A DNA stretch of 1,851 nucleotides from Naegleria gruberi (GCA_000004985.1 GG739316.1), one strand, 5' to 3'; positions 301 to 1,851 are shown, counted from the stretch's first letter. Translations and numbers: made by a program. Notes: generated by a model from the sequence alone, not told the origin.

Positions 301-469
301 ACCACTTTCCAAATAACAACGCAAACAACAAATACACCAAATCTCGATATCTAGATAGAAAGTATATACTTTTTTTAAAACTTTACTGAAAAACCTTTCC
401 AAAAGCCCAAGATTCACTTAAAGACTCTATATTAGATCATAAAGACCATGGTGCCACCGAAGTAACAAA

Positions 470-535
470 TCAAAACAACACCAGGCCAAACCCCAACCTT
501 CTTCTAAACCCAACGTTCAAACCCTAGCCCAAAAT
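470..535. other. C-rich block with degenerate telomere-like / telo-box-like AAACCC(TA) motifs, immediately upstream of the satellite array
   Basis: 'aaacccc' occurs at 488-494, 'taaaccc' at 505-511 and 'aaaccctag' at 519-527. The last is one mismatch from the plant telomere unit CCCTAAA and the telo-box AAACCCTA. The spacing is irregular (18 and 13 bp), so this is not a true heptamer array. Confidence 0.3.
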
Positions 536-620
536 TATAAACTTATTCAAATATCATTAAATTTTATATCATTCGATTGAAAATCATGAGTAGAACAACG
601 TGGTATATTTAGTTTTTCAA

Positions 621-920
621 TTTATAAAATATTAACTTTGTAAATAGTGTCAGATTAAAATTGTTAAAATGAAACCATAGGAAGAATGATAATTTCAAAA
701 TCCTTTAATGAGATTATATAGTCAATATCATCGTTAACAACATTCATAATCACTTTCATATGAAATTTCAAAAGTTCATGTCTGTAGATATAAAAGTATC
801 AAGTGAAAAGGGAAGTTGTGAGGTACAATAGGTCAACTATAACTTTTGAGTTTCTCATCTAAACATATTGAATCCTGACATGAAAATGTTCCATTTGATG
901 AGTACATATCGAATATCAAA
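621..920. repeat. Repeat monomer 1 (~300 bp), the most diverged copy, with indels
   Basis: It aligns with later units at its start (619-640 versus 918-940) and at its end (880-918 versus 1497-1537). Its interior, 'ggtcaactataac' at 831, corresponds to 'gatcaactctatca' at 1145. Confidence 0.55.
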
Positions 921-1228
921 TTTATTTTAACTTTCATATTTACAGATTTCTTCCCTCAACCATCATGGTCAACTATGATGAAAAGGATGAAATCCTGAAA
1001 AAGAACCACCTATTGAAACTTTACCATAATAATTTAGATGATATATAATGATATAGAATTTAATTTCATGTACTAATAATCAGAAATGGTACCATGGGAA
1101 TGTAAATGTTGATTTTACAAAGTTGACTTTAAGGAAAGACAAGAGATCAACTCTATCAAATATATCAATTCAATCAACAAAATATACATGTACATGCTCC
1201 ATTAGATGTGTAGAGATAGAATATAAAG
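921..1228. repeat. Repeat monomer 2 (308 bp)
   Basis: It starts with the 20-bp box that is perfectly conserved in monomer 3. 'catggtcaactatgatgaaaaggatgaaatcctg' at 964-997 aligns with 'ctagtcaactatggacatgaatgaaaatctgg' at 1274-1305. Confidence 0.7.
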
Positions 1229-1536
1229 TTTATTTTAACTTTCATATTCATGATTTCATCCTTTTCATACTATCTAGTCAACTATGGACATGAATGAAAA
1301 TCTGGAAAATGACCTCTCTATGAAACACTTCCATCATGTTTAACAGCTCAAATAATGTTGTAGTATTCAATTATAGAGTTTTAAAATGTAATTTGATAAT
1401 ATAGTAAGGTAAAGGTTGATATTTTAAGTTTGACTTTAAGGATGGAAAGGTGAAAATCAAGATATCAAAAACATCACTCCAGTCAATAAAACACATATGA
1501 AAATGTTGCAAATGATGAGTAGTTATCGAAAATATC
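1229..1536. repeat. Repeat monomer 3 (308 bp)
   Basis: It shares the 20-bp start box with monomer 2. Its second half, 'ggtaaaggttgatattttaagtttgactttaagga' at 1408-1442, aligns with monomer 2 at 1088-1135 and with monomer 4 at 1706-1750. Confidence 0.7.
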
Positions 1537-1843
1537 ATTTATTCTAATTGGAAATATCTCTAATATCTAAATGGTGGTAAACTCTCCCTCAAATGAACAA
1601 GTGAATCAGCCAAGTTGCCAATCTCAAATTAAATCATATAATCATGTTCCACATCTCGAATAATGTATATAATTCAGTTTTTAGACATTTTTGTAAATAT
1701 TCCATCATTCACTAAGGTAAAGGGTGATTTATCAAGGTGGACTTGGGAAGATCAGGAGGAAATCTTGAATATAGAAAACCACATCCTCAATCTACAAAAT
1801 CATATCAATCGATTGGAAATCGATAGTACATCTCGAAAAAATC
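1537..1843. repeat. Repeat monomer 4 (307 bp), somewhat GC-richer and more diverged
   Basis: 'ggtaaagggtgatttatcaaggtggacttgggaag' at 1706-1750 aligns with 1408-1442. The tail at 1795-1851 aligns with 555-620. The next unit begins with 'atttattt' at 1844-1851. Confidence 0.6.
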
Positions 1844-1851
1844 ATTTATTT

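Follow-up and report, generated by a model that had tools for sequence, protein, structure and literature searches.

A short array of diverged, approximately 308-bp tandem units that correspond position by position among three loci

Results

The window, that is, the whole stretch of DNA that was analysed, is 1851 bp long and 71% A+T, and most of its length is taken up by tandem units of about 308 bp. The autocorrelation of base identity has a peak at lag 307, with a value of 0.394 for positions 540–1851 and 0.435 for positions 840–1851, compared with a maximum of 0.369 among 200 dinucleotide-preserving shuffles. Gapless repeat families in the window have spacings of 307, 308 and 309 bp. A dot-plot type of comparison, which had been proposed as a check together with the sequence-only reading of this DNA, shows the expected off-diagonal signal at a spacing of about 300 bp, and in 30-nt diagonal windows at ≥70% identity no lag other than 307–309 gives any signal. 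Tandem Repeats Finder, suggested for the same purpose, left the array unreported both in the window, where its output consisted of three trivial short repeats, and in the related contig L064 described below. Because this program missed the array, we used autocorrelation, gapped alignment and profiles instead.

The in-register cut points of the array are 564, 872, 1180, 1489 and 1796. All units have the same orientation, and none was assigned to a strand. Unit 2 (872–1179, 308 bp) and unit 3 (1180–1488, 309 bp) have a gapped identity of 74.1% (z = 24.7 relative to shuffles), compared to 69.2% between unit 3 and unit 4 (1489–1795, 307 bp; z = 15.4) and 70.9% between units 2 and 4 (z = 11.4). The first 56 bp of unit 5 (1796–1851) match the beginning of unit 4 at 76.4% identity (z = 7.5). 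The head-to-tail array of about 308 bp proposed from the sequence alone is borne out by the lag-307 peak above shuffles and by z values of 11–25 for the units, and the by-eye estimate of 60–75% identity between neighbours was about right, the computed range among units 2–4 being 69–74%. The array is indeed cut by the window edge, as the partial unit 5 demonstrates. Its span, given as 540–1851, holds in part: the array is firm from about 861–872, where the clear signal starts in a sliding diagonal scan of the window alone, the segment 564–871 is a probable unit only, and positions 540–563 belong to the junction, outside the repeat. Three full units and a cut one in the window are robust, and a degenerate unit is probable.

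A half-period of 154 or 155 bp, suggested by the repeat family D4 of L064, was considered and rejected, with half-versus-half comparisons yielding z ≤ 1.7 in all 8 units. There is also no signal near lag 154, and the unit is not a dimer of sub-monomers of about 154 bp.

Related contigs

A search of a metagenome collection with a 20-mer common to units 2 and 3 yielded 90 loci, and BLAST comparison of the window with all 90 identified one true relative, L064 (contig VFQN01031297.1, 2627 bp). L064 is 83% identical to the window over 1132 colinear bases (window 553–1666, L064 1218–2333). The remaining 89 loci are chance matches of an AT-rich 20-mer; the next best of them, L049, has a match of 49 nt and is a coding contig with an open frame of 613 aa. 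A second relative, L127 (VFQN01205255.1, 502 bp), was found by a protein search with a spurious 55-aa ORF of the array and is 94.3% identical to positions 1183–1689 of the window. Both contigs come from the NCBI metagenome assembly GCA_006365155.1. The known loci are three, namely the window, L064 and L127, and two of these are short contigs.

Searches elsewhere were negative. The phage and plasmid collections contained no match. Among viral contigs there were no matches to three specific patterns, and the AT-rich 20-mer occurred in single copy only, with similarity that never extended beyond about 27 nt. Likewise, one exact 20-mer had only single-copy matches in 185,579 prokaryotic species genomes, none of them extending beyond about 24 nt. 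Together with the lack of genes in 1.9 kb of the window and 2.6 kb of L064, the base composition, the microsatellites of L064 and the depletion of CpG, this single-word scan suggests that the DNA is presumably eukaryotic and nuclear. Exact look-up of three ORFs of the window gave no match, a 72-aa ORF of the flank has no homologue, and a 2786-aa composite of six-frame segments also had no match, in a search that missed the known P0001 and P0002 too. The candidates P0003–P0006 were rejected as relatives; they are unrelated repeat proteins (among them fibronectin-like and translated repeats) in which weak stretches of similarity add up. P0003 is a database 'protein' of 1207 aa with about 17 near-identical repeats of 72 aa, and 17 weak stretches of it align with the array ORF at 25% identity. 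This 'protein' has the appearance of a tandem repeat of another genome that was translated, and its match to the array is additive and artefactual, not a sign of homology. A literature search on '308 bp' satellites produced nothing specific.

Correspondence of units between loci

L064 contains four units, l1 (1229–1536), l2 (1537–1846), l3 (1847–2155) and l4 (2156–2465). Unit 1 of the window is 95% identical to l1 (94.8% before rounding) and unit 2 is 92% identical to l2 (91.6%). Units 3 and 4 have their counterparts in L127, at 94% for unit 3 (m3) and 98% for unit 4 (m4, a partial unit), and the cut unit 5, which is of the terminal type, is 93–96% identical to l4 (96.4% to its start). Units at different positions are 41–70% identical in the multiple alignment and 67–77% identical in the best pairwise alignments. 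The units therefore cluster by position across the three loci, and the order is kept although L064 lacks one unit. Expressed differently, divergence among the units exceeds that between copies of the whole array by a factor of 4–6.

The contrast of 92–98% identity between loci with 67–77% within a locus is the reverse of the pattern left by concerted evolution and speaks against the label 'satellite' that had been given to the array; by this comparison, the array is no longer being homogenised. The amplification is several-fold older than the split of the three loci, with no homogenisation since.

The segment 564–871 merits separate consideration. Unit 1 shows no significant similarity to units 2–4 (z of 1–2; p = 0.12–0.27), and a profile built without unit 1 fails to pick it up. 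On the other hand, unit 1 is colinear with l4 of L064 over its whole length, with a score of 77, whereas none of 500 dinucleotide shuffles scored above 56 (z = 5.9). Its first 40 nt or so match unit 5 (z = 3.8), its length is exactly that of one unit, and weak matches of leave-out profiles lie within it roughly in register. On these four grounds we accept 564–871 as probably a very diverged first unit of the array, recognisable only through the related contig L064. A control with rotated, out-of-register units is of limited use here, as free end gaps let the alignment regain the register. The two terminal units are alike and are the most diverged from the central ones, in agreement with the weaker homogenisation described for the ends of arrays (PMC10048060).

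Unit number and array ends

L064 has one unit fewer, and its third unit is a hybrid of units 3 and 4. The head of l3 resembles unit 3 (87–97% over the first 60 nt) and its tail resembles unit 4 (80–93%), with the switch from one type to the other near unit position 150–180. Such a hybrid is the expected product if units 3 and 4 exchanged sequence out of register. The identity of l3 to its putative parents is only about 83%, compared with 92–98% at the other positions, which indicates that the exchange was not recent or that the history is more complex. L127 has the 3/4 junction of the window type, so two structural versions are present in assembly GCA_006365155.1.

A profile of all units detects nothing in positions 1–560 of the window, nor in L064 before 1225 or after 2453, and the leave-out profiles agree. 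The counterpart of the cut unit 5 is l4, after which no further unit is recognisable in L064. By homology with L064, the array of the window should end about 250 bp past the window, and this does not support the expectation that it is 'likely much longer'. The closure at 4–5 units is to be read as no recognisable unit beyond, as the profile would miss any unit that had decayed to the extent of unit 1.

Some further features were observed in L064. At the end of its last recognisable unit there is a hairpin (2442–2466 with 2492–2516) with 25-nt arms that are 84% complementary and a 25-nt loop; Rfam gives only sub-threshold miRNA-like scores at 2442–2516. This hairpin could be the end of an element, or a chance occurrence in AT-rich DNA. 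The upstream flank of L064 contains a compound microsatellite, (TGATGATATGA)n, of about 4.6 copies at 585–634, and the minus strand of positions 90–175 resembles by eye the decayed head of a tRNA-derived SINE, with a box-A-like TAGCTCAGCGG and a box-B-like ATCGATTCTCG. ARAGORN and Rfam make no call at 90–175.

Left junction and left flank

The array is preceded on the plus strand by a left junction common to L064 (CAAnGTTCAAACCCTAGCCCAAA...), followed by a short indel-rich linker (511–563). At the junction, 26 of 27 bases are identical between window 511–538 and L064 1196–1222, and the window carries 9+7+4 extra bases at 534–563 relative to L064. Further upstream lies an A/C-rich, strand-asymmetric segment with clustered AAACC(C) motifs (426–510, plus strand), with a GC skew of −0.42 to −0.48. 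The AAACC clusters (three within 60 nt) are significant at both loci, with p = 0.007 in the window and p = 0.005 in L064, or p = 0.0135 and p = 0.0005, respectively, when local composition is used. Tandem Repeats Finder reports no array in the AAACC-rich stretch, which is thus no true microsatellite. The segment is weakly homologous to L064 1070–1172 (gapped alignment, p of about 0.01). Beyond it, the window upstream of about 426 and L064 upstream of about 1070 have no similarity.

A single copy of the telomere-like octamer AAACCCTA is present in the window, a number matched by 16 of 200 shuffles. The occurrence is not significant, and we rejected it as a mark of subtelomeric origin. The suggested link to plant subtelomeric or pericentromeric satellites is left without a basis here, since monomer length alone is not evidence. 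No convincing inverted repeats or LTRs bracket the array in the window or in L064, and a Pfam search of the flanks found no transposase remnants.

The left flank (1–510) has some properties of its own. It contains three perfect 14-bp palindromes, at 177–190, 223–236 and 359–372 (ATTGAATATTCAAT, AAGATTCGAATCTT and AAAGTATATACTTT, respectively), and two 10-mer palindromes at 51–60 and 348–357. Three palindromes of at least 14 bp were seen in none of 1000 dinucleotide shuffles of 1–510 (mean 0.06), whereas the array itself has no excess. The flank is also rich in GAATC/GATTC words, and GAATCCAA is repeated 2.5 times at 269–288. Its CpG observed/expected ratio is 1.26 compared to 0.36 in the array (564–1851), though the counts are small. 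With the same reservation about small counts, the repeat, but not the left flank, may have been methylated in the past.

Coding potential, RNA and structure

ORFs reach at most 72 aa in the window and 84 aa in L064, and there are stops in all six frames. Unit lengths across the window and L064 are 307, 308, 309 and 310 bp and do not keep to multiples of three, and the frame is lost at 6 of the 7 indels that distinguish related copies. A Pfam search with the longest stop-free segments of the flanks gave no match. The 55-aa ORF (1374–1538, minus strand) has a 92%-identical counterpart on L127 among the ORFs of a gene caller. A protein-coding array was rejected on the grounds of short ORFs, frame-shifting indels and absence of a Pfam match.

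Rfam at E ≤ 1 recognises no family in the window, and in L064 only sub-threshold noise of miRNA and snoRNA type. A tRNA search found none. Folding of whole units is no better than that of shuffled sequences (z = −0.05 to −0.55). The array thus resembles neither hammerhead satellites nor SINE-like tandem repeats, or other satellites that bear a ribozyme or an RNA. An inverted repeat of 28 nt, 89% complementary, extends from unit 2 (978–1005) to unit 3 (1241–1268). A local hairpin at 943–995 is confined to unit 2 and the corresponding unit of L064 (DNA fold z of −1.4 and −1.9). A family-wide hairpin at unit offset of about 65–135, to which the inverted repeat and minus-strand profile matches had pointed, was rejected, as it is absent from the other units. 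Palindromes of at least 8 bp in the first 30 nt of units make up three of eight in the window (two of these overlap) and one of seven in L064, and the association of palindromes with unit junctions is not significant.

Mode of sequence decay

Comparison of corresponding units shows 70 substitutions in 1259 aligned sites, with a transition to transversion ratio of 32:38. Five of the substitutions (7%) are in CpG context, compared with 1.4% of the bases of the window array that lie in CpG. The observed/expected ratios in the array are 0.36 for CpG, 1.27 for TG and 1.36 for CA. The loss of CpG together with the excess of TG and CA is the trace that methylated repeats usually show when they decay neutrally, with the caveat of small counts.

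The head of the unit, meaning its first 60 columns, is better conserved among units than the unit at large, with 66% compared to a mean of 48% (permutation p < 0.0005). Between loci, the substitution rate is 4.6% in the 60-bp head and 6.1% elsewhere, and the difference is not significant (p = 0.38). Because the head evolves no more slowly between loci, there is no evidence of present constraint.

Discussion

These results lead us to propose, with a probability of about 0.6, that the locus, in an AT-rich and presumably eukaryotic genome, holds an old, unhomogenised array of about five units that has been propagated as a block, that unequal exchange alters its unit number, and that it probably has no sequence-specific function. 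According to this proposal, replication slippage or unequal exchange would have multiplied one sequence of about 308 bp a few times. Homogenisation would then have stopped, leaving the units to decay by point mutation and small indels, including the loss of CpG. Much later, the already diverged array would have been propagated as a unit, perhaps through copies placed elsewhere in the genome; it could, for instance, be a segmental duplicate or form the internal repeat module of a mobile element that is non-autonomous. The unit number would still shift by out-of-register recombination between neighbours, as the 3/4 hybrid and the missing unit of L064 suggest, and the edge units, at which homogenisation is expected to be weakest, are also the most diverged.

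The unrelated upstream flanks and the presence of two versions in one assembly favour dispersal of the block, whereas orthology would account just as well for the low number of loci and for units that correspond strictly by position. All three loci could accordingly be alleles or orthologues of a single-locus VNTR, similar to a macro- or minisatellite, in which the difference upstream is an indel beside the array. We regard this as a less probable alternative. A match of 92–98% position by position is exactly what orthology predicts, a difference of one unit is typical of allelic variation, weak homology continues for about 85 bp upstream of the sharp junction, a metagenome can hold several related strains or species, and only three loci were found despite both protein-based and k-mer searches. 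Nevertheless, about 425 bp upstream in the window and about 1070 bp upstream in L064 are dissimilar, which would require a large indel right at the array, and two structurally different versions occur within one assembly. As to dispersal, the array is possibly carried by a mobile element. The possibility that the units are sub-repeats of a larger repeated element, which the sequence-only reading had offered as the alternative to its own view, fits better than a satellite but is not proven, as no terminal inverted repeats or LTRs were seen. A more specific version, in which the array is the internal module of an undescribed family of mobile elements, similar in organisation to pearl/DTC84 or to Helitron-borne arrays but with 308-bp cores that are unusually long and keep a fixed order of positions, the 60-bp head serving as a recognition site for propagation or silencing, appears to us distinctly doubtful.

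It is improbable that the window lies at the decayed margin of a long satellite of the classical type (subtelomeric or pericentromeric), with homogeneous units further to the right. In favour of this reading, the array is cut by the window end, the edges of satellite arrays are their most diverged part (PMC10048060), the AAACC(C)-rich, vaguely telomere-like segment adjoins the left end, and the small size of the contigs could be due to the collapse or breakage of short-read assemblies in long satellites. Yet L064 passes through the homologous array into sequence that is not recognisably repeat, and there is no fall in divergence towards the right, with identities of about 70–76% between units 4 and 5 and 69% between units 3 and 4. 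Moreover, the units show no homogenisation, the occurrence of the telomere octamer in the window lacks significance, and the 20-mer of units 2 and 3 gave one related contig among 90 metagenome matches. The conservation of the first 60 columns among units and the preservation of the array position by position in several loci might also suggest a functional repeated cis-element or a small-RNA locus, where the head of about 60 bp is a selected protein-binding site or a source of small RNA. This is very improbable, as the head changes at the same rate as the rest between corresponding copies, there is no Rfam match and no excess of structure, and indels and substitutions look neutral. We give almost no credence to internal repeats of a protein or repeated exons: the 55-aa ORF does have its 92%-identical gene-caller counterpart on L127, but stops interrupt all six frames, units of 307–310 bp and 6 of 7 frame-shifting indels do not suit a coding repeat, Pfam has no match, and the other protein matches are unrelated repeat proteins.

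An old block that is no longer homogenised has parallels among known systems. Short satDNA-like arrays of fewer than 10 monomers are dispersed in euchromatin, often inside mobile elements (PMC10048060); examples include the euchromatic tandem repeats of Tribolium (PMC4675708), the short arrays of Drosophila 1.688 and the Helitron-borne repeats of oyster. Like these, the array described here consists of a few head-to-tail, AT-rich, non-coding monomers of satellite-like length with unique flanks at more than one locus. It differs in that typical units of such arrays are far less diverged than the 67–77% identity found here, and in that neither a parent high-copy satellite nor a host mobile element has been identified for the 308-bp array.

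The resemblance extends to the MITEs of the pearl/DTC84 type (DTC84 of Donax trunculus, pearl of Crassostrea). DTC84 has up to five core repeats, with variants in fixed positions whatever the copy number (PMC3879986). The short central array is matched by the four units of L064 and the five inferred at the locus of the window, and the fixed positional order, variable copy number and uneven conservation along the core are also seen here. The simple-sequence module that pearl and DTC84 have at one end of the array may be compared with the decayed AAACC-rich stretch. In contrast, the cores of DTC84 are 156 bp long and differ mostly by single substitutions, while our units are 308 bp long and 23–33% diverged. 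No clear counterpart was found here for the conserved 12-nt palindrome at the junctions of DTC84, for the short inverted repeats of its flanks or for its AA target duplication. The flanking modules of pearl and DTC84 are conserved, whereas here the upstream homology fades within about 100 bp, and the right flank is represented by L064 only. There is no sequence similarity between these elements and the 308-bp array.

Tetris of Drosophila virilis (PMC4079207) and Foldback share the concept of a tandem-repeat module that travels in a larger repeated unit, and the internal tandem repeats of transposons of this type seed satellites (PMC4079207). Their long terminal inverted repeats made of units are absent here, where all units have one orientation. 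Classical satellites are likewise tandem, non-coding and AT-rich, and the monomer is in their usual length range, but they form long arrays, of hundreds to thousands of units, that undergo concerted evolution, in contrast to the very few units without concerted evolution observed here. In addition, L064 shows both ends of the array within a contig of 2.6 kb, and the window has no significant association with telomere repeats. Judged by these analogies, the organisation is closest to that of short satDNA-like arrays, particularly the pearl/DTC84 MITEs, a likeness in organisation without sequence similarity. The array is most likely an unnamed addition to this known kind of short satellite-like arrays.

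One practical consequence is that a periodicity of about 300 bp at about 70% identity should not be taken as the edge of a large satellite. The array is a small, clean case of tandem units that escaped homogenisation, with gain or loss of one unit by out-of-register exchange and with terminal units that are the most decayed. If it is true that a mobile element carries the array, it would add one more case to those that link mobile elements to the seeding of satellite DNA.
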